Assembly (NCBI GenBank): GCA_963771175.1
Contig: CAVYSY010000001.1
Location: forward strand, 128,001 to 192,000
Length of the DNA: 64,000 nucleotides
Origin: an uncultured delta proteobacterium
Lineage (GTDB): Bacteria; Myxococcota; Myxococcia; Myxococcales; Myxococcaceae
Direction of reading: 5' to 3'
The translations under genes and the position numbers were made by a program. The notes under the pieces were generated by a model that made no database searches, had not been told where the DNA came from, and was given only the letters and a program-made list of their open reading frames with translations. This document shows, in pieces, positions 30,126 to 63,397 of the stretch (position 1 is the stretch's first letter; each line of letters starts with the position of its first letter).

Positions 30126-31421
30126 CTAGGCCCGTGCCTGCGGTGCGTCGGGCAGCGTCGCCTCGACGTCTCGGATGAGCGGATTCATCCAGGCCCAGGT
30201 GGTGAAGCCAAGCGTCACCAGCCCCATGAGCGCCATGATGACGGCCACTCCGCGGCCCGCGCCGACTCCGAAGAGCGGTCCCAGCCAGTCGGCGAGCCGT
30301 CCCTCGGGCCTCATCGCCGGCTCGAACACCGCGTCGGACAGCGGCCCGGACAGTGCGAAGGCCAGTGGCAGCGTCGCCCCCAGCACCAGCCGGCGCGCGG
30401 CGAACACTCGCCCTTGCAGCGCCGCCGGCACCTTCACCTGCCAGATGGCCTGCACCGCCGAGTTCACCAGCGGGCTGGCGAACCCCACCGCGAAGGCGCA
30501 GGCACCCACGCCCAGCGCGCTCCGCGCGGCGCCGCCCGCACCGAGCGCCACCGCCATCAACAGCCCGCCTGCCCACACCGCCTGGACCCGCCTCCGCGGC
30601 CCGCCCCGGGCCGCCACCAGCCCAGCCCCGGCCAGCATCCCTACGCCTGCGGCCGACATCACCCCTCCGAAGGCCGCCGCCGTCGACAGCGACAGCACCA
30701 GCGGGAGGAGCAGCACCGTGGCCATGCCCAGCGCGAAGTTGATGGCGGCCTGTATCACCAAGGTGCCCAGGAGCCCGGGCCGCTCACCGACGTAGCCAAT
30801 GCCGAAGCGCCACGAGGTCGCCTCTCGCTTGGGCGCCTCCCCGGCCTCCGGCACCTCGGTCAGGGCCACCGCGGTCAGCGCGAAGACGAACGTCAGGGCG
30901 TTGACGACCAACACGCCCGAGAGCCCGATGCCCGCCAAGAGCGCCCCGGCCGCTGACGGCGCCACGAGCTGCGCCAAGGCCTGGCCGGTCTGCTGCGCCC
31001 CGCTGGCCCGGGCCAGCTGCGTCGGCGGCACCAGGAGCGTGGTGGCCGCCTCGAAGGCGAGCCCGTGAAACGCCGCGACGAGCGAGTTCACCGCCGAGAG
31101 CACCCCGATGTGCCACAGCTCGAGTTGCCCGGCGAGGCCGAGCGCCGCGACCAGGCCCGTGCTGACGGCCGACGCGAGGTTGCCCAGCCGCATCACCGTG
31201 CCCCGCTCCAGCCGGTCGACCACCTGCCCAGCGAAGGGCGACACCAGGAGGCCGGGGAGGATGGCGGCCAGGGAGATGAGCGCGTAGGTGGTGACGGTGC
31301 GCGTCTGTTGGAACGCGTGAATGGAGACAACAAAGCCCGACAGCAGGCTGCCCAACAGCGACATCGTCTCTCCGGTGAGGATGACGGGAAAGGCGGCCCC
31401 GCCTCGGATGAGCCGCCTCAC
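30126..31421 (-). CDS. MFS transporter (macrolide-efflux/DHA3-like), probable product exporter
   Basis: About 12 hydrophobic helices; GQVVDRLER and VPAALQGRVFA motifs; GTG start overlaps the TEII stop. Confidence 0.85.
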   Translation of the reverse strand: MRRLIRGGAAFPVILTGETMSLLGSLLSGFVVSIHAFQQTRTVTTYALISLAAILPGLLVSPFAGQVVDRLERGTVMRLGNLASAVSTGLVAALGLAGQLELWHIGVLSAVNSLVAAFHGLAFEAATTLLVPPTQLARASGAQQTGQALAQLVAPSAAGALLAGIGLSGVLVVNALTFVFALTAVALTEVPEAGEAPKREATSWRFGIGYVGERPGLLGTLVIQAAINFALGMATVLLLPLVLSLSTAAAFGGVMSAAGVGMLAGAGLVAARGGPRRRVQAVWAGGLLMAVALGAGGAARSALGVGACAFAVGFASPLVNSAVQAIWQVKVPAALQGRVFAARRLVLGATLPLAFALSGPLSDAVFEPAMRPEGRLADWLGPLFGVGAGRGVAVIMALMGLVTLGFTTWAWMNPLIRDVEATLPDAPQARA

Positions 31422-32170
31422 TGGGCTACCACCCACGGGCGCAGCACGCCCTCGAGCTCCCGGAGGACGGCCTGGCGGTTGTGCAGCACGAAGAAGTGGC
31501 CGCCCTCCACCGTCACCGCCCGGAAGGGGCCGCCGGCGTGGCCGCGCCAGGCCTCCAGCGCGCCGGGCGGCGCGAGGGCGTCGGCCGTGCCGCCCATCGC
31601 CAACAACGGGCATCGCACCGCCGTCCCCGGAGCCACGGAGTGCGTCTCGTCCACCGCGAGGTCCGCCCGTAGCACCGGCAGTATCATCCGCATGAGCTCG
31701 TCGTTCTCCAGCACCTCGTCAGGGGTTCCGCCCAGCCGCTTGATGGCGTCGCGGAACGCCCCGTCGGGCAGCGTGTGCATCGGCGCGTGCTCCCGAACCG
31801 ACGGCGCCGCCCGCCCCGAGGCCACCAGGTGCTTGAGCTCGACGGCGCCGTCGGCTTCGAGCCGCCGCGCCAGCTCGAAGGCGACCAGGGCCCCGATGCT
31901 GTGGCCGAACAGCACCACCGGCAGCTCTCCCAGCGGGCGGAGCGCCTCGGCCAGCGCCTCCACCACCGGCGCCATCCGGGTCAACGCTGGCTCCTTGAAG
32001 CGCATCTCGCGACCGGGGAGCTGAGCGAGGCATAGCTCCACACCGGGCGGCAGCAGGGGCAGCCAGCTCCGGTAGGCGTTGGTGCCCCCGCCGGCGAAGG
32101 GCAGACAGACGAGGCGCACCCGGGCATCCGGGCGCACTCGCGGGCGCACCAGCCAAGGCCCCTCAGCCAT
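31418..32170 (-). CDS. Type II (editing) thioesterase
   Basis: [27 protein letters not shown] and GGHFF motifs. Confidence 0.92.
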
Positions 32171-32366
32171 CCATCTTCTTCCGCAGGCTCAAGGGCCGCA
32201 TGTCGGTCCATACCTGCTCGATGAAGGCCAGGCACTCGGCCTTCGGGCCTGACTTGCCCGCCGCCCGCCAGCCGGCCGGGAGCGCCTTGTCGGCGGGCCA
32301 CAGCGAGTACTGTTCCTCGTGGTTCGTCACCACCTCGTAGACGGTCGTGTCGGCGTTGTCGCTCAT
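32163..32366 (-). CDS. mbtH: MbtH-like protein
   Basis: [10 protein letters not shown]....PAGW....C...I...WTDMRPLSL signature. Confidence 0.95.
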
Positions 32367-34753
32367 CGTATGCCCTTGGGCGGGTGGAGTGTCAGCGTTT
32401 CGCCGGGCGCGGCCATCGCCGCCTCGCGGCCGTAGTACATCGGGTGGTGGGTCACGTGGGCCCAGGCGTCCACCTGGTCCTCGCGGTGTGGGTGCAGGGA
32501 GAGGCCGCTCTGGCCCACCGGAGTCGACCCGACCGACGCCCCCAGGTTCGAGAGGTCCGCCACGAAGCGCTGCGCGGGCCCCGAGGCCACCGCGAAGGGC
32601 ACGTCGGTGTTGTGGAAGGTGGCGTTCACCGAGTAGGGCTCCCCCGAGGCCTCGACGGTGTGGGTGTTGAAGAGCCACTCCAGCGGCTTGATGCCCGCCA
32701 TGCCGAAGGGCTGGTGGGCGAACGTCATGGTGTGCAGCCGCCCCCACCGCCACTGCGTGGGATCGGGTCCGAGGCGGCCGGACAGCCACGCCACCGCCTG
32801 GGTGAAGGCCCGGGCCGAGAGCTCGTCGCGGGTCTCCTTCTCGGGGGTGCGCACGTCGTCGAACCACGGGGAGTCGCCCGACTTCATCATTTGGATGAAG
32901 AGCGGGGTGTGGGTGAGGGCCACCGGGCGGAAGTCCTTGAGCAGCGCCTCGCCCAGCTCGTCACCGATGATCTCATCGAGCAACGTGGCGTACCAGACGT
33001 AGTACACCGAGGCCGCGGTGCTGCTGGTGGTGAAGCGTCGGTCCCACCCCTCGAGCTGGGCGAAGGCCTTCTGCTCCAGCGCTCCGCTGGGCTTCACCTT
33101 GAGCAGGAAGGGGAGGAGCGCCTCGGCCGGGAGCGAGGCGTCGTCGGCCTGGAGCGCCCGCATGTCGTCCGGGGAGACGTGCGGGTTCTTCGCCAGCACG
33201 TCCGTGATGCGCTGCACGCGGAACGGATCGCCCCAGTCATCGGTCAGGTGGTGCGCGTAGCTGTCGGGGGCCACCTTGTTGTTGGCCGAGACGATGAAGC
33301 CGGCCGGCGGGTTGATGGCGAAGGGCAGCTCCTCGAAGGGGATGAAGCCGGTCCACTCGTGCGCTCCCGTCCAGCCCTCGGCCGGGCGGGTGCCATGGCG
33401 ATCGCCAGCCCGCATCGGGATTCGCCCCGTGCCCTGGTAGCCGATGGTGCCGTCGACGTCCGCGAAGACGAAGTTGAGGCTGGGGCTGTCCCACGCCCTC
33501 AAGGCCTGGCGGAACTCCTTCCAGTCCTGAGCGCGGTCGATGGCCTCCAGGGCGTTGAAGAGGGTGCTGCCCTCGCGGGCCGCCCAGCGCAGCGACACCG
33601 GCGGCAGCTCCTTGGCCCCGAACAGCACCTCGTTCACCAGCGGCCCGTGGCGGGTGCTGCGCACCACCAGGGGCACCGGTGCTCCGCCCTTCACCTCGAT
33701 GGACTCCTGCCGGACGCCGAGCGGCTCCATCACCCCTTGGTACTCGGCGGCGGTGGGCGCCTTCGGGTCGTCGAGCTTCTCGAGGTACAAGTCCTGGACG
33801 TCGCTGCACATGTTGGTGACGCCCCAGGCCACGTGGCCGTTGTGGCCCACCGCCACGAAGGGTGCGCCAGGGAAGCTGAAGCCCACTACCTGGTGGCGCC
33901 CCGCGTGGAGACCGTTCTCGTACCAGATGGAGGGCAGCGCGAGCCCGAGGTGTGTGTCGTTGGCCAGCAGCGGCTTGCCGGTGGTCGTCCGCGAGCCGTG
34001 CACCACCCAGGCGTTGCTCCCCCCGGGGAGGCCGGCGAGCGCGCCCAGGAGCGGGGGCAGCGTGGACCTCACGGGAGCCTCGCGCTGAGGCTCGTCCGCC
34101 CGGGTGAGGGTGGTGGGCCCGTCGGCGGGGTAGAGAGGAATCAGCTCGCCGCCGCGCTCGCCCACGGCGTTCGACAGCCGCACCCGCGTCACCTCGTAAT
34201 AGGAGTTGAGCGACATGGCGAGCTGGATGCTCTCGGCCACCAGCATCACGTCGAGCGGCTCCCACTTCCCGGGCTTCACTCCCAGGATGGTCATCTCCAC
34301 CGGGAGCTGCGCGCCGGACGCCAGGAAGGCGTTGACGCCGTCGACATATGCGTTGATGGCGGCGCGGGCGTCGGGGGTGAGCAGCTCCAGGTCTTTCTTG
34401 GCGGCGGGCACCAGTCCCAGCGTGCGGGTGGCCTTGTCGGACTCCAGCGCGGCCTGGCCGAGCATCTTGGAGAGCTCTCCGCGGCCGAGGGCCCGGCCGA
34501 GGACCAGCTGCCAGAGGCGGTCCTGCGCGTGGACGTAGCCCTGGGCGAAGAAGAGGTCGTGCTCGTTCTTGGCGAAGATGTGGGGCACTCCGACGCTGTC
34601 TCGGCGGATCTCCACCGTGTCGATGAGGCCCGGTGCCGCCAACTCTCCGCTCATCTGCGGCCAGGCCGAGCGCAGGTAGAGCCACCCTCCCGACCAACCC
34701 GCTGCCAGCAGCCCTACGAGCACCGCCAGTATCCACTTGAGGGCGCGCTTCAT
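32363..34753 (-). CDS. Penicillin-acylase family (peptidase S45) Ntn hydrolase with N-terminal membrane anchor
   Basis: [29 protein letters not shown] (nucleophile Ser), LLANDTHL and SANNK motifs. Confidence 0.93.
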
Positions 34754-35704
34754 GACTCTCCTCCCGACGTGCCGTGCAAGAGCCTATCGAGGAGCGCTCC
34801 TAGCATCTCGACCTGTGGCGAGGCCATGAGTGAGTGGTGGTCCCCCGGTGTCTCCAACACGGTGAGCGGGCCGTGGCACAGGCGAGCCCAGCTCTCCTGC
34901 GCTCCGGCCTTCCAAGGTTCGGCGGCCGCCCCAAGGATGAGGGTGGCCCCGCCGGCGTAGGCCCGCGGCTCGTACGCCATCAGCGCCCGGAGGTTGCTGC
35001 GGTACACCGCTACCAGCCGCGCGAGCTGCGCCGCGCTCGGTGCGCCCCCTGACAGGCCCCCGCCGGCGCCCAGGCGAGCGGCGAAGGTGGCCAGCTGCGC
35101 CTCGGCGCCGAGGCCCTCGAGGCCCTCGGTCGAGACGCGGCGGCCCCACAACTGCTCCAGGTACTGGGCGATGCCCTTGAGCCAGGGGAGCGGCGTCTCG
35201 AAGGTCGCGGCGTCGCAGGCGACGCGCGCCCTCGCGCCGGCCTCCGGGTCGCCGTCGATGAGGCCGAGGAAGGCGATGGCCTCTCCGCCGCGCGACAGGT
35301 GCTGGGCCACCTCGAAGGCGACCTGCGCCCCCAGGCTCCACCCGGCCAGGCGGTAAGGCCCCTGTGGCTCGACCGCGCGGATCGCCTCCGCCAGGTGCGC
35401 CGACAGCTGGCCCAAGGTCGAGTAGGGCTCGCACTCGCCCGCCAGCCCTGGCGCTTGGAGTCCGTATACCCTCCGCTTCGGCATGGCTCGGGCCAGCGGA
35501 GCGAAGCAGGTGACGTCGCCTCCGGCGGGATGCACCAGGAAGAGCGTGGGGGCCGGACCTTCTCCGAGCGGCACGACGCAGGGGGGACGCTCGGGGGCCT
35601 TGGGGCCTGCTCCCGCCAGGGTGCGCTCCAGCGCCTCGCGCTGGGCAGAGGGAAGGCGGGCTCGCCTGGCTTCGAGCGTGGCTCGCCGGTGGGCGAGGGC
35701 GTCT

Positions 35705-35712
<8 letters not shown>
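34750..35712 (-). CDS. Stand-alone type I (release) thioesterase with N-terminal docking-like helix
   Basis: LFLVHPAGG, GWSLG and PGDHHSL motifs; ATG 35712 overlaps the NRPS stop. Confidence 0.88.
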
Positions 35713-48096
<12,384 letters not shown>

Positions 48097-48100
<4 letters not shown>

Positions 48101-50867
48101 GATTGCAGGTGCTCCAGCGCGGCGAGCTCATCGGGCGAGGCGGCGGCGGCCTGGGCCACCAGGGCCTCGAGTTCGGCCGCCGGCGTAGCGAGGGCAAGGG
48201 TCGACACCACGAGGCACGCCATGCCCTCGATGGTCGGCTTCTCCAGGAGCTCCTGAAGGGGGAGCTCGACCCCCAGCCGCTCGCGGAGGCGTGAGACGAG
48301 CCGAGTCGCCATGAGCGAGTCGCCTCCCAGTTGGAAGAAGTTGTCGTGAACCGACAGGCGCTCGAGGCCCATGATCTCGTGCCACGCCGCGGCCACCTCG
48401 CGCTCCAGGGGCCCCCGGGCATCGAGGCAGCCGGTGAAGGCCGGCGCTAGCGCCTCGGGGTGATGAGGCGCTCCCGCCTCTGCGGCCGGGCGACGCGCCA
48501 CCCAGTGCGGCTCGGGCTCGAAGTCGTAGGTGGGCAGGGGCACGCGCCGCGGCGGCCCGGCGTGGATCGTGCTCCAATCGGGCGTGGCTCCCAGGCACCA
48601 GGCCTCGCCGAGCGCCCCGAGCAGCGACGCCACCTCCCCTTCGCCCGGCTCGAAGCCGCCCACCGTGCGCGCGTCGATGCGCCGGGCCGACTCCGAGGTG
48701 GCCCCGACTTCGACAACCATCGCGCCGGAGGCCTTCAGCGCTTCGAGGCCCTCGGCGACGCGCGCCGGTCGGGTGAGGTGCGCGACCCACGAATCGGCCG
48801 AGGTGGCCTCCTCGGCGCTCATGGCTCGTCCGGTGAGGGTGGAGACGATGGGGATTCGCGGGGCCGAGAGGACGGCGGAACGCAGACGCCCGCGGAAGCG
48901 CTCCACCAACGCCTCTGCGGCCGGGCCGGCCCCCACGGACTCGACGAAGTGAGCGCGGGCTGCGGTGAGCGCCACCGCGTCGTCGAGGGACAGCACGCCA
49001 GCGAGGCAGGCCGCCACGTACTCACCCACGCCCGACCCCATCAGCAGCGCCGGAGTCACGCCGCGCGCCATCCACCAGCGGGCCGTGGCGTACGACACCG
49101 CGAAGAGGGCGACGTCACCGAGCGCCGGAGCGGGGCTCGGTGCGAAGGCAGCGGTAGAGAGCTCGCCGCCCCCCGCCTTGGCGTGCGCTCGGGCGCAGGC
49201 GTCGAAGGCCTCGCGGAACGCGGGCTCGGCGCGGTACAGCCGGGCGCCAGCACCCGGCCGCCGCTCTCCCGAGAAGAGGAATGCCACCTTGAGCCCCGTC
49301 TCCTGCGCCTCCACCGGCGCCTGCGGCCTGGCGAGGGCGGTTGCCGCTGCGCGAGGGTTCTCGGCCACCACCGCTCGCCGGAAGCGGAACGGGTGGCGCC
49401 CGGCCTGGAGCGTCCAGGCGACCTCGCGGAGGCCCACCGGGGTGCGCTCGAGGTGCGCCGCCAGCTTCGTCGCCGCCGCCTCGAGGGCGCGAGGAGTGCG
49501 TGCCGAGAGGACGAGCAGCTGCGGGCCGGCGGGCGCGGCCGTCACTTCGCGTCGGGGCGCCTCCTCGAGCACCACATGCGCGTTGGTCCCTCCGAAGCCG
49601 AAGCTGCTCACCCCGGCGAGCCGGCGCCGGGTTCCCCGCGGCCAAGGCCGGAGCGTCGCGTTGACGTGCACCGGGCTCGAGGCGAAGTCGATGCGCGGGT
49701 TGGGCGTGTCAAAGCCCACGCTGGGGGGAGCTCCTCGTGCTCGAGCGCGAGGACCGTCTTGAGCAGGCCGGCGATGCCCGCCGCCACGTCGAGGTGGCCG
49801 ACGGCGCCCTTCACCGAGCCGAGCGCGATGGTGCCCCGGCGGCCGCTCGGGCGGCCGAGAGCCTTCTTGAGCGCTTCGATCTCCACCGGATCTCCCAGCG
49901 CCGTGCCGGTCCCGTGGGCTTCGATGTAGTCGAGCTCGTCGGGCCGCACGCCGGCGACCGCGAGCGCCTCGGAGACGACGGCCGCCTGGCCATTGACGGC
50001 CGGGGCGGTGAAGCCCACCTTGAGGTGCCCGTCGTTGCCGATCGCGGTGCCGCGGATGACGGCGCGGATCGGATCGCCGTCCTTCACCGCGTCGGCCAGG
50101 CGCCGCAGCACCACCACGCCGAGGCCGCTGCCGAAGACGGTGCCGCTCGCCTTCGCGTCGAAGGGCCGGCAGACGCCGTCGGTGGCGAGGATGGATCCGT
50201 CCACCGCCACATAGCCCGCCCCCTGGGCGAGGTTGATGGACACGCCGCCGGCGAGAGCCACGTCGCACTCCTGATTGAGGAGGCTCTGGCAGGCCAGGTG
50301 CACCGCCACCAACGAGGAGGAGCAGGCGCTCTGCACCGCGAAGCTCGGGCCGGTGAGGTCCAAGAGGTAGCTGACCCGCGTGGCGAGCGAGTCGTTGATG
50401 TTGTTGACGAAGACCTGCAGCGCCCCGGCACCGTGGCTCTCGGGCCGGCTCATCAGGTTCAAGAGGAGGTAGTTGCTGGTGGTGGCTCCGGCGAAGACAC
50501 CCGCGGGCTGCGGGGCGCGCCGAGGGTCGATGCCCGCGCTCTCCAGCGCCGCCCAGGCGACCTCGAGGAAGAGGCGCTGCTGGGGGTCCATCTCCTCCGC
50601 CTCGCGGGGGCTCAGGCCGAAGAAGGCGGCGTCGAAGAACTCCTTCCCCTCGAGCGGCGCGGCGACCGGGACGAACCTCGCGTCGCCCCTGAGCCTCTCG
50701 TTCACCTCGAGCGCCTTGAGCTCCTCGGGCGACAGTCGGCGGATGGCCGAGCGCCCGGCGCGCAGGTTGGCCCAGAAGGCGCTGAGATCCGCCGCGCCTG
50801 GGAAGCGCCCGGCCATGCCGATGAGGGCGATGTCGGGACCGTTGGCATCACTCACGGCCAGCTCCAT
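48097..50867 (-). CDS. Type I PKS: KS - degenerate AT - ACP; -1 frameshift in the G run at 49723-49728 (alternative GTG start 50855)
   Basis: KS motifs DPQQR, VQSACSSSL, EAHGTGT, GHL and SSFGFGGTNAH. AT motif reads GSGVGEY instead of GHSxGE and the domain is shortened. ACP GGDSL. Confidence 0.88.
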
Positions 50868-53800
50868 TTCGACGAGTCCTGAGCTCCCGGCGCTTCGAGC
50901 CGCGCGTTTGGGCCTCGTCGGAGTCCTCGGCGGACGGCTCGGGGGCTGGAGCCGCGGCGGGCAGCCCCTCTCTAATCAGCGCCGCCAGCGCCCGCACCGT
51001 GGGCGCCTGGAAGAGCCCCACCTCGGACAGCCGCACCTTGAACTCGTTGCGCACCTGGTTGATCAGCTTGATGCCCACGATCGACGTGCCGCCGATGTCG
51101 AAGAAGTTGTCGTCGAGGCCCACCTCGTCGACGCCCAGCGCCTCCTTCCACAGCGCGATGAGCTTCGGCTCCACCTCACCCTCGGCCACGACGGGGACGG
51201 GCGCCGGCCTCGGCTCGACGGGCGCGTCCGCCGGGGCTTGGGCGATGGCCCTCGGCGCGGTGAGCCGGACGGCCATCGAGTGCGTCGATACGGCGACATG
51301 GCTCAGCCCGCTCGCCACCGCGGCCCAGGCGCAGCGGACGCCCTCCTCGGTGGTGAGGCCGTCGGCCATCATGGTGCTTCGCCACCGCTCCAGGGCCGGG
51401 TCTGCCTCCACTCGAGCCGCCATGCCCACCTCGCGCCAGGCGTCCCAGCCGATGGACGTCCACGGCTTGCCCGCTCGGGCCTGGGCGCGAGCAAGCGCGT
51501 CGAGCACCGCGTTGGCGGCCACGTAGTCGGCCTGCCCGGGCATGGGCACCGCCGCAGTGAGCGAGGAGCAGAGGATGACGAAGTCGAGCTCGAGCCCCTC
51601 GAGGGCCTCGGCGAGGCCGAGCGCCCCGTAGGCCTTGCCCGCCATCACCGCCTCCTGGGCGGAGCGCTCCCTCAGCTGCACCAGGCCTCCGCCCGGCACA
51701 CCCGCCGCATGGATGACGCCGTGCAGGGCCCCGAAGCGCCGTCGCACCTGCTCCACCACCGCCGCCGCCTCGCGGGAGACGTCCGCGCCCAGCACCTCGA
51801 CCTCGGCCCCGTGTCGCCGCTCGAGCTCCATGAGCCGCTCGAGCCGCTTGGCGAGCCCGTCGCCAGCGCGGGCACGGGCGGCCCACTCGGCTCGTGGCGG
51901 CACCCACGTGCGCGTCACCAGCGCCAGCCTGGCCCGAGGCGTCCGGGCGGCGAGGTCGGCCACGAGCTCGAGGCCGATGCCGCCCAGGCCGCCTGTCACC
52001 AGGTACACGCCGCCGTCTCGCACCGGCGCCGTCGTCGCGTCGAGGCGCGGCACCCGCTCCCAGGTGAGCGTCCAACGGCGTCCGCCCCGCATCGCCACCT
52101 CGGTCGGCCCGTCGCGCTCGAGCTCCTCGAGCAACCGGGCGGCCTGCTCGCCATCGGTCACGTCGACGACGCGGCAGCGCAGCCCGGGGAGCTCGAGCGG
52201 CAACACCCGCGCCGCGCCCAGGACCGCTGCCCGTGAGGGCGCGAGCGACTCGTTGCCGCTGACGTCGTGCAGCCCGGTAGTGACGAAGGCGAGCTCAACG
52301 GCGGCGGACGGGCGCCGGCCCAGCGCCCGGGCGAGGGCGACGGGCCCGAAGAAGCAGCCGCCGGGCGACGAGGCGCCGGTCGACAACCACACCACGCGCT
52401 CGGGCGTGGCGAGCTCCGACAGTGCGCGCGCCCAGGCGTGCTCGTCCTCCAGCGGCAGGGCGACACCCGCGCCCCCCCGCTCGAAGGTCGGGCCGTCAGC
52501 GAGTACCTCGAGCGGGCAATTCGAGCGGCGCAGCGCCTCGCACAGGCCGGCCGCAAGAGGACCGCCGTCGCTCACCACCCAGGTGGCAGCGCCCGAGCCG
52601 CGAGGCGCCGCGGCCTTCGCTCGAGGAACTTCCCGGTAGGCCGGAGCGTTCAGCCAGTCGCTCTCGGGCAGGCGCGGGTCGGCCTCCGCCGGCCGGGGTG
52701 CGGCGACCACCGGCCCCGGATCAACCCAGGAGCGCTTGCGCTCGAAGGGATAGGTGGGCAGGGGCACGCGCCGCCTCGCCTCGCCAGCGCGGTACCTGGC
52801 CGGGTCCACCTCGATCCCGGCGACCCAGAGTCGGCCCAGGGCGCGGGCGACCGCCCGGGTGTCGTCGATGGTCTCCTGAGGGTGCCGGAGGAGCGTCACC
52901 ACCTCGTGACGCGCGGTGCGCGCCGGGTGAGTCCGCACGAGGCCGCTCAGCACCTGACCGGGGCCGACCTCGATGCAGGCGCGGGCGGGGGTTGCGAGCA
53001 GCGCGCCGGCCGCCGTCGCGAAGCGCACCGGCTGGCGCATCTGCCGCACCCAGTACTCCGGATCCGTCGCCTCGGCCGCGGTGAGCCAGGTGCCGGTGAG
53101 GTTGGAGAGCACCTTGAGGCGCGGCGCTGCCAGGCGCACCCGCTTCACCTTCTCGAGGAGGAGCGGCGCCGCCTCGTCGAGCATGGCGGAGTGGAAGGCG
53201 TGTGACGTCTTGAGCGCCCGGCCCTCGACGCCCTCGGCCCGGAGGGTCGCGGCGAAGGCCTCCACCGCCGGCGTGGGGCCCGATACCACGCAGGACTCAG
53301 GGTGGTTCACTGCGGCGAGGTCGAGCTCCCGGCCCAGGCGCGCCTCCACCGCCGCGGCGGGCAGCGGCACCGCCAGCATGCTTCCGGGCTTCATCTGTTG
53401 CATGAAGCGCCCGCGCGCCGCCACCAGCGTCACCGCGTCCTCAAGCGAGAAGACGCCGGCCAGGCACGCGGCCACCAGCTCACCCAGGCTGTGCCCCAGC
53501 ATGGCCTCGGGCTCGAGCCCCCACGACATCAGCAGGCGAGCCAGGGCGTACTCGACGGCGAAGAGGGCGGGCTGGGTGACCGACGTCTGGGCCAGCGCGT
53601 CGGCGGCGGCCCGGCGATCCGCCTCGGCCGGCGGATAAATGCGGGTGCGAAGGTCGAAGCCCAGCTCGGGCTCGAACAGCGCGCACGTCCGGTCGAGCTC
53701 GGCGGCGAAGACCGGCTCGCTTTCGTACAGCCCGCGAGCCATGTCCACGTGCTGGCTCCCCTGGCCGGGGAAGAGGAAGGTGAGGGGCCGGTCGCGCTCG

Positions 53801-56800
53801 GCGGACCCGGCGATGGCGTCGGGGGCCCGCAGCGCGGCGATGGCCTCGTCGCGCGAGGCGCAGGGCACGGCGCGGCGATGGGTGAAGGCGCGGCGGCCGG
53901 CGTGCAGCGTATGGGCGACGTCGGCCAGCGGGAGCTCGGGGTGCGCCTCGAGGTGGGCGGCCAGTCGCTCGCTCATCACCGCCAGGGCGCTCTCGGTCTT
54001 GGCCGAGAGGAAGAGCAGCTGCTGCGAGCGGGAGGAGCCCGACGGCGGGCGCGCTGGCGCCTCGGCCACGATGACGTGGGCGTTGGTGCCGCCCATGCCC
54101 AGCGAGGTGACGCCCGCCACCCGGGGCGAGCGCGGCCAGTCGCGGAGCTGGGTGTTGACGAAGAAGGGCGTGGCGTCGAAGTCGATGCCCGGGTTGGGCT
54201 TTTGGAAGTGGAGCGTGGGCGCCAGCTTGCCGTGCTCGACGCTGAGGACGGCCTTGATGAGCCCCACGACGCCGGCGGCGTTGTCGAGGTGGCCGATGTT
54301 CGTCTTGAGCGAGCCGAGCGCCACCGAGCTCTTGGGCAGGGGTTCGCGGCCGAAGGCCTGGGTGAGGGCGGCGATCTCGATCGGGTCGCCCAGGGCGGTG
54401 CCGGTGCCGTGGCACTCGATGGCGACGATGTCCTTGGGGCTCACCCCGGCGGCCGCCATCGCCTGCTGGTAGACGTCGACCTGCCCCGCGACGCTGGGCG
54501 CGGTGTAGCTCACCTTGAGCGCCCCGTCGTTGTTGCAGGCCGAGCCGCGGATGACGGCGTGGATATGGTCTCCATCGGCCAGCGCGTCCTCGAGGCGCTT
54601 GAGCAGCACCACCCCGGCGCCCTTGCCCGAGACGAAGCCGCTGGCGTCGGCGTCGAAGGCCCGGCAGTGCCCATCGCGCGAGGTGGTGCCGCCGTCTTGG
54701 AAGAGGTAGCCCGACTTCTCGGGCAGGTGGATGGACACGCCGCCAGCCAGCGCCATCTCGCACTCCCCCGAGAGGAGCGTCTGGCAGGCCATGTGCACCG
54801 CCACCAGTGACGTGGAGGACGCCGACTGGATGGTGACGCTCGGTCCCTTGAGGTCGAGCTTGTACGAGACGCGCGAAGTCAGCGGGTCCTTGTCGTTGCC
54901 CAGCGCTGCCTGCAGGGTGTCGAGCGACGCCACCAGCTTGAGGTGGGGCAGCAGGTTCATCAGGAGGTAGGTGTTCATGCTGCAGCCGGCGAAGACGCCG
55001 ACTCGCCTGGGGTACCGGGACGAGTCGTAGCCGGCCGCCTCCAGGGCCTCCCAGGAGCACTCGAGGAAGATGCGGTGCTGAGGGTCCATCAACTCCGACT
55101 CCCTGGGGGAGAGGGAGAAGAACTGCGCGTCGAAGCGATCGATGTCCTCGATGGTGCCGCCGGCCTTGACGTAGTTGGGGTCGTCCAGCAGTGCCTGCTC
55201 CACCCCGGCGGCCCGCAGCTCCTCGTCAGTGAAGAAGGTGATGGACTCGACGCCCTTCACCAGGTTGTCCCAGAACTTCGATGGGCTCGACGCCCCAGGG
55301 AAGCGGCCGGCCACCCCGATGACGGCGATGGCGCCGCTCGAGGGCCGGGCCGGCGCCCGCACGGTGGCGACGGCCCGCTGCTGGCCCTCGGGGGCGAGGG
55401 CGGCGGCGAGGGAGCCCACGGTGGGGTAGCGGAAGAGGTCCACCAGCGTCAGGTCTCTTCCCAGCACCCGCTGGAGCTCGGCATGCACCTTCACCAGGAG
55501 GAGCGAATGCCCGCCGAGGTCGAAGAAGTTGTCGCTCATCCCCACCTGGTCGACCTTGAGAGCGGCCCTCCACACGCTGGCGATGCGCTCCTCGAGCTCG
55601 CCTCGCGGGGCGAGGTAGGCCGTCTCGAGCTCCGGGCGCGCCGAGGTCGGCTCGGGCAGCGCGCGCACGTCCACCTTGCCGCCCGCGCCACGAGGGAGTG
55701 CCTCGAGCACCACCACCGCCGCCGGCACCATCGCCTCGGGCAGCCGCTCGCGAGCGAAGGTGAGGAGCTCGCCCTGGCCGGCCGTGCCCGCCACGTAGGC
55801 CACCAGCCGCCGCTCATCGGCCCGCTCGCCTCGGAGCACCACCGCCACGTCGCGCACACTCGGGTGGCGGCGCAGCGCTGCCTCCACCTCATCGAGCTCG
55901 ATGCGGTGGCCGCGCACCTTTACCTGTCGATCGCCGCGCCCGAGGAAGGACAGGGTCCCGTCGGAGCTCCACCGGGCGCGATCGCCGGTGCGGAAGAGGC
56001 GCTCGCCGGGACGGAAGGGGTTGGGCACGAAGCTCTGGGCGGTCGCCGCCGACCGGCCGACGTACCCGCGGGCGAGCCCGGTGCCGCCCACGTACAGCTC
56101 GCCGGCGCAGCCCACCGGCAGCGGCTCCATCTCCGCGCCGAGGACGTACACCTGCGTGTTGAGGACGGGCCGGCCGAGCGACACCGGGCCGGGGCGTCCG
56201 AGCTCCTCGGCCGAGACGCGGTGGAAGGTGGAGCAGATGCCCGTCTCGGTGAGGCCGTAGCCGTTGACGAGGGTGAGGCCTTGGCCGAGGCCCGGCAGCT
56301 CCGCGGCGGTGAGGGCCTCGCCGCCGCTCAGCACCAGGCGCACCCGCGCGAGGCTCCGCTGCGCGTCGCGGAGGCTCACCAGCCGCGAGGGCAGCGTGCT
56401 GACGATCGTGACGCCCGAGGAGGCGATGAGGCCCGCCAGCTTCGACTCGTCGAGCATCTCCTCGCGGGTGGGCAGCACGAGCGCGCCGCCGGCGCAGAGC
56501 AGCGGGAAGACCTCACCCACGAAGCTGGCGGAGGCGAGCGAGGTGACCGGCAGCATCCGGTCATCCGGCCCCGGCTGGTAGGAGTCGATGAAGGAGGCGA
56601 CCAGGTTGGCGAGGGCGCGGTGCTCGAGCACGGTGCCCTTGGGCTCACCGCTGGAGCCGGAGGTGAAGATGACGCAAGCCGAGGCCGCGGGGTCCGCCTG
56701 GGGGCCGGGCGCGTCGTCGGCCTCGCCCCCGTCGACCGAGACGGTATCGATCCCTTCGAAGGACGGGGCGGAGCCGTCGCCCACCACCAGCCGCACTCTA

Positions 56801-59800
56801 GCGTCGGCCAGCATGCGACGGGAGCGCGCCACCGGGGCCTCGGGCTCGAGGGGCAAGTAGGCCGCGCCGGCCTCGAGTACTCCCAACAGCGCCACCACCA
56901 GATCGGCGCTCCGCTCAAGGCAGACGCCCACCACCTGCTCGGGTCCCGCGCCCAACGACCGGAGTCGGCGAGCGAGGTGGCACGCCCGGCGGCGCAGCGT
57001 CAGGTAGTCGAGCGTCTCGCCTCGACACACCAGTGCCACGGCGCGCGGCGTCTTTCGCGCTTGCTCGGCGATCCAGGCCTGCACGGTGGCCGGGGTCTGC
57101 CGCTGTGCCTCGGTGGCGTTCCACGCCTCGAGCTGGGCGCGGCGCTCTTCAGGGGAGAGGAGCGGCGCCTCGAGCACCGGCCGGGACGGCTCGGCCACCA
57201 GCGCCTCGACGAGGGTGACGAAGTGCCGTGCGAGGGTTCGCACGAAGGCCTCGTCGAAGAGGTCCACGCAGAAGTCGAAGGACGCGCGGAGCACGCCGTC
57301 GACCACCCCGGCGGTGAGGGGAATGTCGAACTGGGCGCGGCGCTGGGCGAGGGGCACCGACTCGAGGGTGAAGCCGGCCCATGGCAGCCGGACGTCCGGC
57401 ATGTTCATCGCGAAGCCGGTGAGGGCGTCGCCGTCGGGCCCCGTCCCCTTCTGGAAGACGAACATCGTCTGGAACAGCGGCGGGCGCGACGCGTCTCGCC
57501 GGGGCCTGAGGCGGGCCACCAGGCTGGTGAAGGGGTAGTCCTGGTGCGCCAGGGCACCCAGCACCTGCGCCCGGGTGGCAGCGAGGAAGTCAGTGAAGGA
57601 TTGCCCGGGGCCGAGGCGGCTGCGCAGGGCGATGGGGTTGGCGAAGTAGCCGGGCACGTCCCCGGTGCCGGCATGGCGCCGCCCGGTGGCCACGCTGCCC
57701 ACCACCAGGTCGTCCTGCCCCGTGTAGCGGTGGAGGAGCGTCTGGTAGGCCGCGAGGAGCACCATGAAGGGGCTGGCATGGTGGGCCTGGGCAAAGGCCC
57801 TGAGTCGAGCAGTGAAGGCGGGCTCGAAGGCCATGTCCACGACCGCGCCGCGGGTGGACTGCACCGCGGGCCGCGGGCGGGCGGTGGGGAGCTCGAGCAC
57901 CGGCAACTCGCCGGAGAGCTGGGACTCCCACCACCGGGCCTGGCGTTCACCCTCGGCGCCGGCGAGGAGCCGGCCCTCGGCCTCGACGTGGTCCTGGAAG
58001 TCAGCCTTCACCGCGGACAGGCCGGAGGGGCGACCGGTCGCCTCGGCGACGTAGAGCGCGCCGAGCTCCTTGAGCAGGAGGCCCTGGGACCAGAAGTCGG
58101 TCACTATGTGGTGCAGCGTCACCACCACCACGTGGCTCCCGTCGCCTGGGTCGAGCACTCGCATCCGCGCCGGGGGCTCGGCATCGAGGGCGAAGGGCCG
58201 CTCGGCCTCGGCATCGGCCTGGGCGTCCAGCTCGCTGGGAGCGACAGGCTCGACCGCGAAGGGGATCGTCTCGGCGGGGCCCACGCACTGGATCGGCACG
58301 CCGTCAACCGAGGGGAACCGACTGCGCAAGAGTGGATGCCGCGCGGCGAGGGCACGGAAGGCGCGCTCGAGGGCGCGCACGTCGAGGTCTCCCCGCACTC
58401 GGAACGCCGCCGGCACGTGGTAGCTCGTGCTCCGGGGATCGAGCTGGTGGAGGAGCCACAGCGCCCGCTGCCCCTCGGAGAGCGGCCAGTCTCGCGCCGT
58501 CCAGTCGCGCCCGCTCGTCGCGGTGGCGCCGGCGGCCTTGGCGGCGGCGCGGCGGCCGAGGTCCTTGAGTGGCGTGGAGCCGAAGAAGTCCTCGAGGGGG
58601 ACGGTGAGCCCGTAGGTCGCCTCGAGCTCATGGCCGAGCTCGACGAGCTGCAGGGAGTCGAGGGCGAAGCTGCCCACCGGCGCGTCGAGATCAATCGAGG
58701 CGGGGGCGACGCCTAGCCGCGCGGCGATCGCCGTCTGGAGCCACTCGCCGAACTCGCGGCGGGGGGCCGGCGGAGCAACCGGCGCCGGCTCGCGACCCAC
58801 GACCTCGAGCTCGCCGGCGAGGTAGGCGGCCCGGCACGCCCCGCGTTGGATCTTCCCGCTCGACGTCTTGGGGATGGACCGGGGGGCGATGCAGCACCAC
58901 CTCGTGGGTCTGCACTTCGTGCTCGCGGGCGATGGCCCGCTTCACCGCGTCGATGACCGCCGGCGCGTCGAGGCCGTCGGATGACACCACCTCGTGCACC
59001 ACCACCAGGCGCTCCTCGCCGTCGACCTCGAGGGCGAAGGCGGCGCCACACCCGGGCCGTAACCCGGGGTGGCTCTCCTCGGCGGTGAGCTCGAAATCCT
59101 GCGGGTAGTGGTTGCGCCCGCGGATGATGAGCATGTCCTTGATGCGGCCCGCGACGAAGAGCTGCCCCTCGTCGATGAAGCCCAAGTCTCCGGTGCGCAG
59201 GAAGGGCCCTTCGCCGGAGGTGGTGGTGGCGCGGAACGTCTCGGTGCTCACCTCCGGTCGGCCCCAGTAGCCCTTGGCGACACTGTCGCCCCGCACCCAG
59301 ATCTCCCCCACCGCCTCGGGCGGCAGCTCGGCTCGGGTGGAGGGGTCCACCACCTTCACCAGGCTGGCGTCGCCGCAGGCCACCAGGCGGCGAGCGACGG
59401 AGTCTTGCGAGCGCTGGACCCGGCGCTGCTCCAGGGCCTTGGGATCGAAGCCCCGCGCCCGCGGCTCGGGTTTGCCTCCGCTCGCCAGCAGGGTCGCCTC
59501 GGCCAGGCCGTAGCAGGGGACGAAGGCATCGCGGCTGAAGCCCGAGACGGCGAAGGCGTCGGCGAAGCGGTCGAGGGTCTCGGGGCGGATCGGCTCAGCG
59601 CCGTTGAAGGCCACCGTCCAGCGGCTCAGGTCGAGGGTGCGGCGCACCTCGGGGGGGATCTTCCGCACGCAGAGGTCGAACCCGAAGTTGGGGCCACCGC
59701 TCACCGTGCCACCGAAGTCCGAGATGGCCTTGAGCCACCGGAGCGGCTCCTTGAGGAACTCGAGGGGCGAGAGCAGCACGCAATGGGTGCCCAGCCACAT

Positions 59801-60473
59801 CGGGTGGAGCACGTTCCCGATGAGGCCCATGTCGTGGTACAGCGGCAGCCACCCCACCACCTTGGAGTCGGGCCGCGTGCCGAAGGCGCGCTGGATGAGG
59901 CTCTGGTTGTGGAGGAGGTTGCGGTGCGACACCATCACGCCCTTGGGGCTGGCGGTGGAGCCCGAGGTGTACTGGAGGAAGGCAATGGCCTCGGCGTCCA
60001 GCGCGGGGGGCGTCCAACGCTCGGTCCAGCTGCCGTCCAGGGTATCGGTGGCCAACCACCGCAGTGGGCGGTGATCAGCCATGAGCTGCTCGCCCACGGC
60101 ACAGACGGCCTCGGTCGCCAGCGCATGGGCCGGCTCGGCGTCCTCGATGATGGACAAGAAGCGGGTGAGCGGCCGGTCGAGGCGAGGCGGGTAGACCGGC
60201 ACCGCCACCGCTCCGGCGTAGAGGCAGCCGAAGAAGCCCGCCACGTAGTCGAGACCGGGTGGGTAGAGCAGGAGCACCCGCTCGCCCGAGGCGCCCTGGG
60301 CCATGAGCCTCGCGCCGATGTCTCGGGCCTGGGCATCGAGCGCCTGGTAGGTGAGGTTCACCTCACCCTCACCACCGTCGAGGAGAAATGTGTAGGCCGT
60401 GGCCTGGGGGTCGGTCGGCTGCGCGGGAGCGGAGCAGTTCGACCAGGGTCTGGGCGTGAAGATCTGAGCTCAT
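50848..60473 (-). CDS. Hybrid FAAL-ACP-C-A-PCP-KS-AT-KR-ACP synthetase; apparent frameshifts near 60408 and 58891
   Basis: FAAL (QYTSGST..PKG, WLPLYHDMGLIG, CYGLAEATL, PKTSSGKIQR after frame repair), ACP LDSL, C HHIVTDFWS, A FTSGSSGEPKG, PCP GGHSL, KS, AT GHSLGE/HAFHS (malonyl type), KR GGLGGIG/YVAAN, ACP GGTSI. ATG 60473 overlaps the upstream stop. Confidence 0.9.
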
Positions 60474-62920
60474 GGTGTGCAGGAGTCGAGCGTTCCGGCG
60501 AGGCGGGTGGTGGGCAGGCGCGACGCCGCGGCATCCATCATGGCGCAGCCGCGGCCGTCGATTTCCGAGGGCGAGAGGGCGACGAGTGGCTCGGTGCGGG
60601 GTGCTCCCGCTGGGCCCCAGGTGAGGTTGAACTTCACCGCCACGGTGAGGGCGTCGAGCCAGGGGCGCCCGCCGAGCAAGTCCACCTGCTTGTCCACCAC
60701 CAGGGAGACGTTGGCGGCGTAGGTGGCCGGCATGTTCCAGTTCGCCAGGAGGCTCGCCCGCACGGTGTTCTCCGAGGCGTATTGGAAGGTGAGCCGCGAA
60801 GTGATGGTGGGCGACAACGCCCCGTTGGCGACCACCGAGACGATGTGCGAGGTGAAGTCGGCCAGAGGGAGCCAGACCTGCTCGCGATCGTAGATGGCCT
60901 GTACCCCCAGGTTGGGCAGGGGCCGGGCGAAGAGGTTGAAGCGAGTCCGGAAGCGCCTGCCGTTGTAGAACCGCCCTCCGTCGAGCCAGAGGATGCCGGC
61001 GTAGGGCCGCGACAGATCGGTGCCAAAGCCGAAGAAGAGGTTGCGGTAGTGGTAGGTGCCGGTGGGGATGACCAGGTCTGTCCGGCTCTCGTCTCCGGTA
61101 ATGGCGAAGGGCTCGTTGAGCTTCTCCACCTGGTCCACCGTGGGGATGATGGCAAAGGCGTAGCCGTTGTTGAAGATCACCAGCGTCTCGGCCTTGTTCT
61201 TCATCGTCTGACGCGACCAGTCGCGGTCCATCACGAGGTTGAAGTCGTAGATGAGGCTCGCCTGTTTGATGCCCCAGAAGCCCGGGCGCGCCGTGAGGAT
61301 TGGCACCACCTGCGCCTTGCGGATGCTCGGCCGCGTCAGGTAGCCCATGTCCGGGCGGAAGTTCTGGCCGATATCCGTGTAGAGCGCGTGCAGCGAGAGG
61401 TGCTGCGTCTGCAGTACCGCGTCGACCGAGCCGGCGAGGTCGCCGCCGGGCCCCTGAATGGGCCGGTCGGTGGGCCCCACGTCATGGGTGAACGTCTTCG
61501 CCAGGTAGCCGCCGAAGCGCAGGTAATCGGTCACCACCAGGTTGCCGTCGACCCCCACCCCGCGGTTGAAGGCGCCGTCTTTGCCCTGCTTGTTGAGGCC
61601 CATGAGGCCCAGGCTCGAGCTGTTGGGGAAGTCGTAGCGCAGCCTCATGACGGTGTAGTTCTCGAGCGGCACCTGGATGGTCGTCTCGGGGTCGTCGACC
61701 TTGGGTGTGGTGAGGTTGAGCAGGCCGACGTTGAGCTCGCCCACCTTCCCGGTGATGCGGGCTCCGCCGATGACCGGGATGGTGGCCTGGCCGCCCTTGG
61801 CGAGGCCGATCTGGCGGCTCTGGAAGAAGATGAACTGCTCCAGCGTCTCGTTGGACGTGTCGACGACTCGATCGCCGAAGTAGAAGAGGCTGGCGCCCTC
61901 CTTGAAGAACTCGCGCTTCTCGGGGAGCAGCAGCGGGAAGCGCGTGAGGTTGAGTTGCTGCTCGTCGGCCTCGGCGTCGGCGAAGTCGGGGTAGACGGTG
62001 AGGTCGGCGGTGAGGCTGGAGGTGATGGGGATCTTCACGTCGATCCCGAACCGGACCATGGGAGACGGCTTGCCCGCGCCGCGCCTGGTGGCGCCGGTGA
62101 AGACGTATGGGCGGGCGTCGAAGAGGTGCCGGCGCTCGATGGCCGAGAATCCGGAGAGCTCGGCGTAGTTGGCCACCTTGTATCGGGAAGACCACAGCCC
62201 CCGGCTGTGGGGCATCGGCTTCCAGTACGAGACCTCGTGGTCCGCCGCCACGAACCGGCCGAAGTTGGCGCCGAACACCGGCTCGGACGTGTCCTTGAAG
62301 CGCAGTGTGGCGAAGGGAATGGAGAACTCGGCGGTCCACCCCCGCTCGTCCCGGGTGGTGGCGACTGCCCAGAACGCGTCGTCCCAGTCGTAGCGGAGGT
62401 CCTCCCCGTTGTCCCGAATGGTGCCATCCACCCGCACGCCGAACGGGTTGGTGCGAAAGAGGAAGGCGTTCTGGCGATCCTGGAAGGTGTCGAGGGCGAG
62501 CTCGACGTGGTCCTCGTAGCTGAGGTCGGCGTCGTGGTTCATCGACAGCGCCACCATCGACGACGGGCCGGCCCACTCGCACCGAAAGGCGACGTAGAGG
62601 GCGTGGGCGTTGTAGCCCACCCGCACTTCGGTGCGCCGCGTCGCCGGCGCTCCGTCGGACGGCTCGGTCTGCACGAAGTCGCCCAGCACCGGGGCCTCCG
62701 ACCACGCGGCGTCGTCGAGCTGCCCGTCGATGACCGGGGCGGACTTCAGGCGAGGGACGTGCAGGCGGAACTGCTCCGCCGCCGATACCTCCACGCCGGC
62801 TGGGGCGCTGGGTGCTTCCTCAGCCGCCTGGGCAGGACGAAAGGCCCCAGTGACGAGCACGAGGACCAAGAGAATGGTGAGTCGGGGCGTCCGCTGGGCG
62901 CTCGGCTGAACGAGGTTCAT
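60470..62920 (-). CDS. CBM9-like + DUF5916-like outer-membrane protein
   Basis: Signal peptide; PVIDGQLDDAAW, DTFQD..NAFLFRTNPFG, GWTAEFSIPFATLRF and PDF...EAD...LNLTRF.L..PEKREFF.EG motifs; C-terminal beta-strand pattern. Confidence 0.8.
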   Translation of the reverse strand: MNLVQPSAQRTPRLTILLVLVLVTGAFRPAQAAEEAPSAPAGVEVSAAEQFRLHVPRLKSAPVIDGQLDDAAWSEAPVLGDFVQTEPSDGAPATRRTEVRVGYNAHALYVAFRCEWAGPSSMVALSMNHDADLSYEDHVELALDTFQDRQNAFLFRTNPFGVRVDGTIRDNGEDLRYDWDDAFWAVATTRDERGWTAEFSIPFATLRFKDTSEPVFGANFGRFVAADHEVSYWKPMPHSRGLWSSRYKVANYAELSGFSAIERRHLFDARPYVFTGATRRGAGKPSPMVRFGIDVKIPITSSLTADLTVYPDFADAEADEQQLNLTRFPLLLPEKREFFKEGASLFYFGDRVVDTSNETLEQFIFFQSRQIGLAKGGQATIPVIGGARITGKVGELNVGLLNLTTPKVDDPETTIQVPLENYTVMRLRYDFPNSSSLGLMGLNKQGKDGAFNRGVGVDGNLVVTDYLRFGGYLAKTFTHDVGPTDRPIQGPGGDLAGSVDAVLQTQHLSLHALYTDIGQNFRPDMGYLTRPSIRKAQVVPILTARPGFWGIKQASLIYDFNLVMDRDWSRQTMKNKAETLVIFNNGYAFAIIPTVDQVEKLNEPFAITGDESRTDLVIPTGTYHYRNLFFGFGTDLSRPYAGILWLDGGRFYNGRRFRTRFNLFARPLPNLGVQAIYDREQVWLPLADFTSHIVSVVANGALSPTITSRLTFQYASENTVRASLLANWNMPATYAANVSLVVDKQVDLLGGRPWLDALTVAVKFNLTWGPAGAPRTEPLVALSPSEIDGRGCAMMDAAASRLPTTRLAGTLDSCTP

Positions 62921-63277
62921 GTCTCTGCGCCATCGGGGGGGGTGGCACACCAGGTCGTGATGATCCGATAGATGCTTAACAGTAGAGCAAAACCGGCGCG
63001 ACTGGACAAACGTTAAAAGCAGGGAATGCCCTTCGGCGGGGTGAGGCCCGGGGCCCAGCCCCGCGTCGAGGATCTGGCCTCTGTGCGCTGGCCTCAAGGC
63101 ATCTTGGCTGTGTACGCGCCACCGAAGGTGGGGGCAGACACGCGCGCGGTTCTCAAGCGCCTGCGCCGGGTTCTTGGGCCAGGGGTTTCGGGTAACTGAC
63201 ATGGCCGACGTCATGGCGCACCCTACGAAGTCCGCGCAGCGGCTCCCTAAGAGATAGGGCTGCTTTCGGCCTTGCCG

Positions 63278-63301: not shown

Positions 63302-63397
63302 CAAGCCGCCACCGGCGACCAAGCATGGCCAAAAGAGGCCAGATTTCGCAGTGGTTCCAGTTGGTTACGATGGAAGCCCTGGAGGTCCCACTCATTC

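Follow-up and report, generated by a model that had tools for sequence, protein, structure and literature searches.

The stretch analysed here, called the window throughout, comprises 64,000 nucleotides (positions 128,001 to 192,000 of contig CAVYSY010000001.1) from the genome of an uncultured delta proteobacterium of the Myxococcaceae. It carries a hybrid gene cluster of nonribosomal peptide synthetase (NRPS) and polyketide synthase (PKS) modules in which one ketosynthase (KS) domain, KS1, has a serine in place of the catalytic cysteine and follows an unusual adenylation (A) domain. The source genome assembly amounts to 9.8 Mb in 58 contigs with a completeness score of 81.7%, and the G+C content of the window is about 0.72. 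Between 30 and 64 kb, gene-like third-position G+C (GC3) is found on minus-strand frames only; the frames of the cluster have GC3 values of 0.91-0.93 and stop codons only at the sites of insertions or deletions (indels), and the long plus-strand open reading frames over the cluster region fail the GC3 filter and were rejected as antisense artefacts of high G+C. By Pfam, the order of domains and genes on the minus strand is fatty acyl-AMP ligase (FAAL); acyl carrier protein (ACP), condensation (C) domain, A domain, peptidyl carrier protein (PCP), KS, acyltransferase (AT), ketoreductase (KR) and ACP; KS; a linker with an AT remnant and an ACP; NRPS; thioesterase (TE); acylase; type II TE; and an MFS transporter (Table 1). 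The main frame, 50848-58800 on the minus strand, encodes 2650 amino acids (aa) that run from the first ACP to the ACP behind the KR, with three PP-binding stretches in the Pfam annotation.

Table 1. Features of the cluster in the window, in the order of the assembly line
Feature	Position	Strand	Basis and remarks
FAAL	58691..60469	-	Pfam AMP-binding; NCBIfam fatty acyl-AMP ligase models
Putative starter ACP for the fatty acyl group	58561..58752	-	Pfam PP-binding; approximate placing from DSLQLVEL
Condensation domain	57136..58491	-	Pfam Condensation, residues 104-555; aligns with the E. coli ClbH C domain
ClbH-A2-type A domain	55675..57069	-	Pocket TSLASASFVGE and NGYGLTETGICS; structure match and ClbH alignment
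PCP	55411..55608	-	PP-binding; FFDLGGHSL aligns with the ClbH carrier
KS1, ClbI-type, Ser1328	54205..55332	-	Pfam, motifs, ClbI alignment, tree
AT1, intact malonyl-type	52813..53781	-	Pfam; GQGSQ, GHSLGEL, HAFHS; aligns with the ClbI AT
KR	51430..52011	-	Pfam KR; NADPH motif TGGLGGIG; Tyr motif GQADYVAANAV
ACP1	50974..51165	-	PP-binding, residues 2546-2609
KS2, normal Cys, both His	49719..50834	-	Pfam; QSACSSSL
Run of six C, frame break of module 2	49723..49728	-	DNA; contig comparison
KS-AT linker and decayed AT2	48400..49718	-	Pfam profile positions 3-134 of 319 only
ACP2 (GGDSL)	48217..48399	-	PP-binding, residues 624-684 of frame 48097-50268
NRPS, 4131 aa, three A domains and three carriers	35705..48100	-	Continues the assembly line
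Thioesterase	34750..35862	-	Pfam Thioesterase; frame overlaps the NRPS end
Penicillin-amidase family acylase	32363..34753	-	Pfam Penicil_amidase, 747.6 bits
Type II thioesterase	31418..32188	-	Pfam; ClbQ match, 32% identity
MFS transporter	30126..31718	-	Pfam MFS_1

Re-read on the minus strand, the active site of KS1 is encoded by atc cag tcg gcg TCC tcc acg tca ctg (I Q S A S S T S L), with the serine codon TCC at 54819-54817 specifying residue 1328 of the 2650-aa frame. This confirms the exchange of Ser for Cys that an earlier note on this DNA had placed at the same codon. That note had also taken both histidine motifs of KS1, the malonyl-type AT and the KR to be intact, and all motifs of module 1 (CHGTGT, KTNIGH, FPGQGSQ, GHSLGEL, HAFHS, TGGLGGIG and the KR tyrosine motif) were recovered together with the Pfam domains. 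Among the 21 KS domains of the source genome, KS1 is the only one with serine; 19 have cysteine and one lies in a garbled frame. For the KS at G000:C25:134083-134778, translation of the active-site region gives CRRPAPRSLV, which probably reflects a further local frame error of this assembly. Serine is rare in the comparison sets as well: the 276 KS of the 120 nearest database proteins comprise 275 with Cys, one with His and none with Ser, and the 51 KS of 150 representative megasynthases, a set used as a control only, comprise 49 with Cys, one with Glu and one with Ser (P0122). The list of 120 homologues was ranked by summed score, which favours proteins with several KS, and its best identity was 62%; the clade of serine KS (Ser-KS) described below was missed by it and was found by pattern scans.

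Both KS1 and the A domain upstream of it find their best solved counterparts in the colibactin assembly line. Solved chains were named by comparison with the annotated colibactin island of E. coli CFT073. Compared as a single domain, KS1 scores highest against 8xjy/8xjz_A/8xju (476 bits), whose QTSSSTSL is also that of CFT073 ClbI, and next against 4wky (439 bits), which has Cys. From KS1 through AT1 the window protein is 47% identical to ClbI over 973 aa, with Ser1328 opposite Ser178, and the KS taken alone is 57% identical. The core of the A domain best matches the second A domain of 8xjz_C (184.6 bits; next protein 83, first A domain of 8xjz_C 70) and is 50% identical to ClbH-A2, and the alignment with the C-A2-carrier (C-A2-T) part of E. 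coli ClbH extends over 1093 aa at 35% identity. In back-searches of the source genome, the ClbH-A2 core returned the window A domain first (152 vs 99 bits) and the ClbI KS returned KS1 first (447 bits vs 333 for KS2), so that both are reciprocal best matches.

The substrate pocket of the A domain agrees with this assignment. The aligned pocket reads LPVTSLASASFVGEVFPLL in the window and LPITSVASASFVGEVLPLL in ClbH, and its motif is TSLASASFVGE in the window and TSVASASFVGE in ClbH-A2. In the alignment, A domains of this clade show Ala-Ser...Gly where other A domains show Asp-Ala...Trp, and NGYGLTE for N.YGPTE; in the window, Ala takes the place of the Asp that binds the amino group in other A domains. 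Neither ClbH-A1 nor the next A domain of the window has these features, and the ClbH-A2-type motif is absent from the 150 representative megasynthases best matching A-PCP-KS. According to a review, ClbH bears S-adenosylmethionine (SAM) on its carrier and ClbI, in which Ser178 replaces the conserved Cys and S178A abolishes activity, cyclises it to an aminocyclopropane unit; colibactin ClbI is, in the same text, the only assayed KS that makes a cyclopropane from carrier-bound SAM. The precedent invoked in the earlier note, a Ser-KS in ClbI acting after ClbH, is in agreement with the review and with the QTSSSTSL of E. coli ClbI. KS1 is a ClbI-type KS coupled to a ClbH-A2-type A domain, and its serine is real and conserved: the pair combines a Ser at the position of ClbI Ser178, grouping within the same clade, a ClbH-A2 pocket, direct adjacency, and both His with a malonyl-type cis AT.

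The association of this A domain with a Ser-KS extends well beyond the window. Loci were picked by the A-domain motif alone, and the KS was inspected afterwards. A scan of one genome per species found the motif at 13 loci: Klebsiella, Erwinia and Serratia have it in colibactin-type islands, and there are further loci in Pyxidicoccus, Myxococcus, Holophagales and Thermoanaerobaculia metagenome-assembled genomes (MAGs) and one in an unclassified MAG. Two of these end before any KS, and the KS in the flank of the others has Ser in every case (11/11). A domain, carrier and Ser-KS are directly adjacent in ten of these eleven and lie in a single frame in the window; in L020 two other genes intervene, and the Ser-KS lies at a distance of about 5.4 kb. 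L020 has a sulfotransferase gene before its ClbH-like NRPS gene, and DUF5916 (2457-4682) and FGE-sulfatase-type genes between the NRPS and the Ser-KS. Among relatives of the window genome, the seven best KS matches (six from the same genus, one from the same family) all have Ser, and all seven are preceded by an A domain reading TSL[AS]SASFVGEI.

A scan of metagenomes returned 66 loci, five of which lack SASFVGE and were discarded as chance matches to the degenerate pattern (one of them, L041, near a Cys-KS). Among the 61 loci with the true motif, 44 have a Ser-KS within 3 kb and none has a Cys-KS, eight, of the low-G+C type to which L020 belongs, have no KS within 3 kb, and nine end early. 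Enterobacterial colibactin islands account for about 30 of the 44. A subfamily of the A motif with low G+C (0.45-0.56) has no KS within 3 kb (L020, L048, L052, L079, L080, L081, L084, L096 and L100). Altogether, clustering at 90% identity sorts the 63 Ser-KS into 21 groups, of which colibactin makes up one. Homology gives strong support to the earlier suggestion that the Ser-KS does non-canonical chemistry on whatever residue the unusual A domain loads, through the ClbH-A2 and ClbI types of the two domains, their reciprocal best matches and this co-occurrence.

It is nevertheless conceivable that the conserved pair has another substrate or reaction in this family, the A domain loading methionine or a related residue and the Ser-KS elongating through an oxoester or making a different ring. 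Colibactin enzymes are the only ones assayed, the A core shares half of its residues with ClbH-A2, and the context of the family differs in its FAAL, KR and acylase. However, the pocket segments are near-invariant across phyla (TS[LVI][AS]SASFVGE, NGYGLTE), which argues for one substrate, and we regard a change of substrate or reaction as unlikely.

Phylogenetic analysis places KS1 together with ClbI, as the earlier note had proposed to examine. The tree of 74 KS took in 19 Ser-KS, both window KS, the other KS of the source genome, E. coli ClbC and ClbB, the KS following Ser-KS genes and the best KS from the 25 highest-ranking database proteins. The duplicate locus L001 was left out, as were matches interrupted by stop codons and those shorter than 340 aa, L020 among them. 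All 19 Ser-KS lie on one side of a branch with an SH-aLRT support of 96, which becomes 97 when 21 active-site columns are removed. The nearest relatives of KS1 are in a Thermoanaerobaculia MAG (69%) and in soil metagenome contigs (70.7%) with the exact IQSASSTSLV. Eight alignment columns separate the other 18 Ser-KS from 41 near Cys-KS, and KS1 has the clade residue at four of them.

A change from TGC to TCC is a change of one base, a caveat that the earlier note had itself raised. Near-identical sequence was listed in 24 public runs from 12 studies, 20 of them with part of the stretch and nine with at least half of the sampled words, and Logan contigs of four runs (X1, X20, X4 and X8; four studies) were compared over 47900-60500. 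The serine codon is spanned by a contig in all four, and no difference is listed there among those displayed (X1 8/8, X20 4/10, X4 2/10, X8 1/3, only the X1 list being complete). All eight differences of the X1 contig lie elsewhere; X1 may be the source sample of the window. The agreement of the X1 contig with TCC and the conservation of Ser throughout the clade meet this caveat.

The contigs also bear on frame breaks in the window. Module 2 is spread over two frames, 49608-50867 and 48097-50268, and the break at the six-C run lies inside KS2, a point overlooked in the earlier note. One extra base behind 49722 in the X1 and X20 contigs brings KS2, AT2 and ACP2 into a single frame; the X4 and X8 contigs do not cover this site. 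The FAAL is separated from the next frame by an indel at 58892 and truncated at its N-terminus by another at 60406. One base fewer at 58892 in the X1, X20 and X4 contigs fuses the FAAL to the ACP-C-A frame, giving a FAAL C-terminus that looks normal by eye, and one base fewer at 60406 is found in the contigs of all four runs. These three single-base indels (49722/49723, 58892 and 60406) are probably errors in this assembly, because three frame-breaking indels in 12.6 kb are absent elsewhere, the completeness is low and other overlapping same-strand frames occur. A strain with a decaying cluster is a less likely source of the indels.

These data speak directly to the possibility that a base-call error produced the Ser codon or that this strain carries the cluster as a pseudogene. 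The single base, the three indels relative to other assemblies and the completeness of 81.7% are what such an explanation would draw on. Opposed to it are the identical codon in the X1 contig, the Ser in all 62 other KS beside this kind of A domain, the GC3 of 0.91-0.93 in frames free of stops outside the indel sites, and the absence of the indels from two to four other assemblies. We therefore consider artefact or decay largely refuted and exceedingly improbable as an explanation of KS1.

Outside the Enterobacterales, the loci that we checked share a common cassette, FAAL-ACP-C-A-PCP-KS(Ser)-AT-KR-ACP. Three Acidobacteriota MAGs encode it as a single protein of about 3390 aa, whereas Pyxidicoccus, Myxococcus and the genus of the window have it divided between two proteins of about 1830 and 1575 aa. 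Once the frame breaks are set aside, the window cassette is predicted to be one polypeptide, and the C-A-PCP-KS-AT core within this cassette (58.9-51.0 kb) is, as judged by homology, a fused counterpart of ClbH (C-A2-T) and ClbI. In a relative of the same genus, G008, a peptidase M28 gene (L030:14889-16106) lies directly upstream of the FAAL-ACP-C-A-PCP gene, which is not so in the window. Pfam finds AT, KR and ACP behind the Ser-KS in all six other non-enterobacterial cassettes; the AT motifs are intact in each of the six, and strict KR motifs are present in three. This conserved AT-KR-ACP argues that the Ser-KS does condense, since there would otherwise be no ketone to reduce.

The second module of the window combines an ordinary KS with a decayed AT. 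As the earlier note had described, KS2 is normal (QSACSSSL) and AT2 lacks the catalytic Ser and is shortened: it has FSGERRPG in place of GQGSQ and GSGVGEY (49018-49038) in place of GHSxG, and about 68 residues are gone. KS2 and ACP2 retain their catalytic motifs. The KS nearest to KS2 (61%) lies directly after the Ser-KS gene in G041, a Thermoanaerobaculia MAG, and belongs to a KS-AT-ACP module whose full-length AT has FSGQGSQ and GHSLGEY; the module after the Ser-KS in G042 and G008 is KS-AT-KR. The X1 and X20 contigs have the same decayed AT2, with no indel there beyond the frame fix. Because the G041 counterpart is intact, the following modules vary and both contigs show the same decay, the dead AT2 is a real loss in the window's lineage and not a partner of the Ser-KS.

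In the earlier note, the two modules were suggested to cooperate in a single extension, KS1(Ser) being unable to condense and AT2 unable to load, with KS2 using AT1, the KR and one ACP. A KS without Cys and an AT without Ser do stand side by side here, and KS2 and AT1 are intact. However, Ser-KS modules keep an AT, KR and ACP of their own in the six other cassettes, the modules that follow them differ, with an intact AT in G041, and in E. coli, where ClbI shares this Ser, the gene after clbI is the NRPS gene clbJ and not one for a partner of that kind. The comparison does not support this proposal, and we judge shared half-modules to be quite improbable. Module 2 is instead ClbC-like and most likely still works, in which case it would be loaded in trans by AT1, the nearest candidate for loading ACP2, or by a housekeeping AT.

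Taken together, these observations suggest a pathway in which the cassette makes an N-acyl aminocyclopropane from SAM while the residue is on the line, then extends and reduces it, with module 2 loaded in trans; we consider this pathway probable. The FAAL would put a fatty acid on the first ACP, and the ClbH-A2-type A domain would put SAM on the PCP, which would hold the SAM-derived residue. The C domain would then N-acylate this PCP-bound residue by coupling the fatty acyl group to its amino group, and the Ser-KS would cyclise the tethered residue to 1-aminocyclopropane-1-carboxylate with loss of methylthioadenosine. Module 1 would extend the product with malonate from its own AT, the KR would reduce the new ketone, module 2 (KS-decayed AT-ACP) would probably add a second malonate, and the NRPS and TE would complete the chain. 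By analogy, the penicillin-amidase-type acylase may later take off the fatty acyl group. In G041 and G043, the gene immediately upstream of the one for the Ser-KS is a homologue of the acylase gene.

A broader and more speculative extension is that Myxococcota, Acidobacteriota and further environmental bacteria, 20 lineages besides colibactin, make a widespread and as yet undescribed family of metabolites with a cyclopropane, of which these loci are the mark. Here the fatty acyl group would serve as a removable cap, and the freed 1-aminocyclopropyl amine could close on the unreduced ketone of module 2. The resulting spiro-cyclopropyl pyrroline would be an electrophile that recalls the warhead of colibactin. 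We put this forward tentatively, as a possibility on the doubtful side. Our literature search, which left subscription papers and supplements outside its range, found no publications on ClbH/ClbI-like pairs outside colibactin or on myxobacterial aminocyclopropane pathways.

Several observations weigh against the proposed pathway and should be set beside it. The KS and the A core are only moderately similar to their E. coli counterparts, at 57% and 50% identity, and biochemistry is confined to the colibactin members; moreover, the chemistry of ClbI is taken here from a review, which calls the role of Ser178 uncertain and the mechanism unsettled. Within the Ser-KS clade, KS1 forms a long branch (0.42) that joins at an unresolved fork, and it lacks four of the eight clade-specific residues. 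The clusters are related to each other, so that the co-occurrence counts are non-independent events. No free-standing AT was found among those window frames that were scanned, which are a part of the total, and the acylase is next to the cassette in just two of five related genomes. Finally, a Ser-for-Cys KS also occurs once outside the ClbI-type clade, in P0122, so Ser alone does not define function. This P0122 domain (residues ~5870-6250, QTFSSTSG) belongs to a pure PKS megasynthase without a ClbH-like A domain, in which the other KS read QTFCSTS, and it is unrelated to the ClbI-type clade.

Some features of the surrounding genes deserve mention. In the NRPS (about 40700-44850 on the minus strand), condensation-type domains number five, against three A domains and three carriers. 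Motifs give the order C-A-PCP-E-C-C-A-PCP-C-A-PCP (E, epimerisation domain), so one C-type domain lacks a carrier of its own. The minus-strand overlaps at 35705-35862 (TE and NRPS) and 31418-31718 (type II TE and MFS) may be further indel errors splitting or merging genes. At 18995-21654 on the plus strand, three consecutive overlapping same-strand frames have gene-like third-position G+C, the first being a Ser/Thr kinase, and these may be one indel-broken gene. A DUF5916 protein flanks the cluster (60470-63322, minus strand). As a cluster marker, DUF5916 was rejected as a weak link, its best homologues lying 30-50 kb from the cassette in G041 and G042.

Our findings indicate that the A/KS pair is not confined to the colibactin island but occurs in 20 further lineages, from metagenomes of soil, sediment and other sources, in what appears to be a conserved cassette that is primed by a fatty acid and bears a KR. 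Natural variants are now to hand for probing the Ser and the other clade-specific residues, and the A motif offers a simple sequence rule for mining cyclopropane pathways. The result is a set of uncharacterised clusters whose products likely carry an aminocyclopropane unit. The dead AT, as a lineage loss, and the apparent frame breaks, as probable assembly errors, are side issues to this.

Comparison with known systems places the cluster further. In pyoverdine biosynthesis, PvdL and PvdQ exemplify a logic in which a FAAL primes the NRPS and an Ntn-hydrolase acylase removes the fatty acyl group. The window is similar in its penicillin-amidase family gene and in its FAAL. In NCBIfam, the FAAL best matches models of fatty acyl-AMP ligases together with the N-terminus of PRK05691, an NRPS/PKS model of 4334 positions that we take to be PvdL-like. 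The window differs in that the acylase is not a PvdQ equivalog, matching that model weakly (81 bits against a cut-off of 950), and in that the rest of the pathway is unrelated.

A changed catalytic residue also links KS1 to other non-standard KS domains. KSQ and Ser-type loading KS stand at the start of assembly lines, and the KS0 of trans-AT PKS lose a His and keep Cys. Loss of Cys with both His kept, as in KS1, is the pattern of decarboxylating loading KS domains, and KS1 might on this account be decarboxylating or inactive, merely priming or passing on the chain with no role in ring formation. Unlike loading KS and KS0, however, KS1 stands mid-line after a PCP with both His kept and groups with ClbI; it is tightly linked to one special A domain, and S178A abolishes the activity of ClbI according to the review. 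We therefore hold a decarboxylating or inactive KS1 to be very unlikely and retain the cyclopropane-forming role proposed above.

The cluster is not a colibactin (clb) gene cluster. In tblastn searches of the source genome (81.7% complete) with nine Clb accessory proteins, ClbS, ClbM and ClbE had no match; the best matches of ClbP, ClbG, ClbF and ClbD lie on other contigs, that of ClbL on the window's contig outside the window, and only ClbQ, a type II TE, has its best match inside the window. The rest of the colibactin pathway is thus absent. As noted previously, colibactin PKSs do include degenerate ATs, and ClbC is the example relevant to module 2: both have a KS with Cys (47% identity), an AT relic without the catalytic Ser (GAGTG in ClbC, GSGVG in the window) and an ACP after it. 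ClbC precedes ClbH, whereas module 2 follows the Ser-KS module, and the two AT relics align weakly (25% identity); since the nearest counterpart, in G041, keeps an intact AT, the loss in the window looks independent of that in ClbC. The closest parallel is ClbH-A2 and its carrier with ClbI. The window shares with them the A-pocket motifs, the KS serine, the order A-carrier-KS, the intact malonyl-type cis AT and the same KS clade, at 47% identity to ClbI (KS-AT) and 35% to ClbH (C-A-T), and it differs in joining these domains in a single predicted polypeptide with a FAAL-ACP starter and a KR and without the A1 domain of ClbH.

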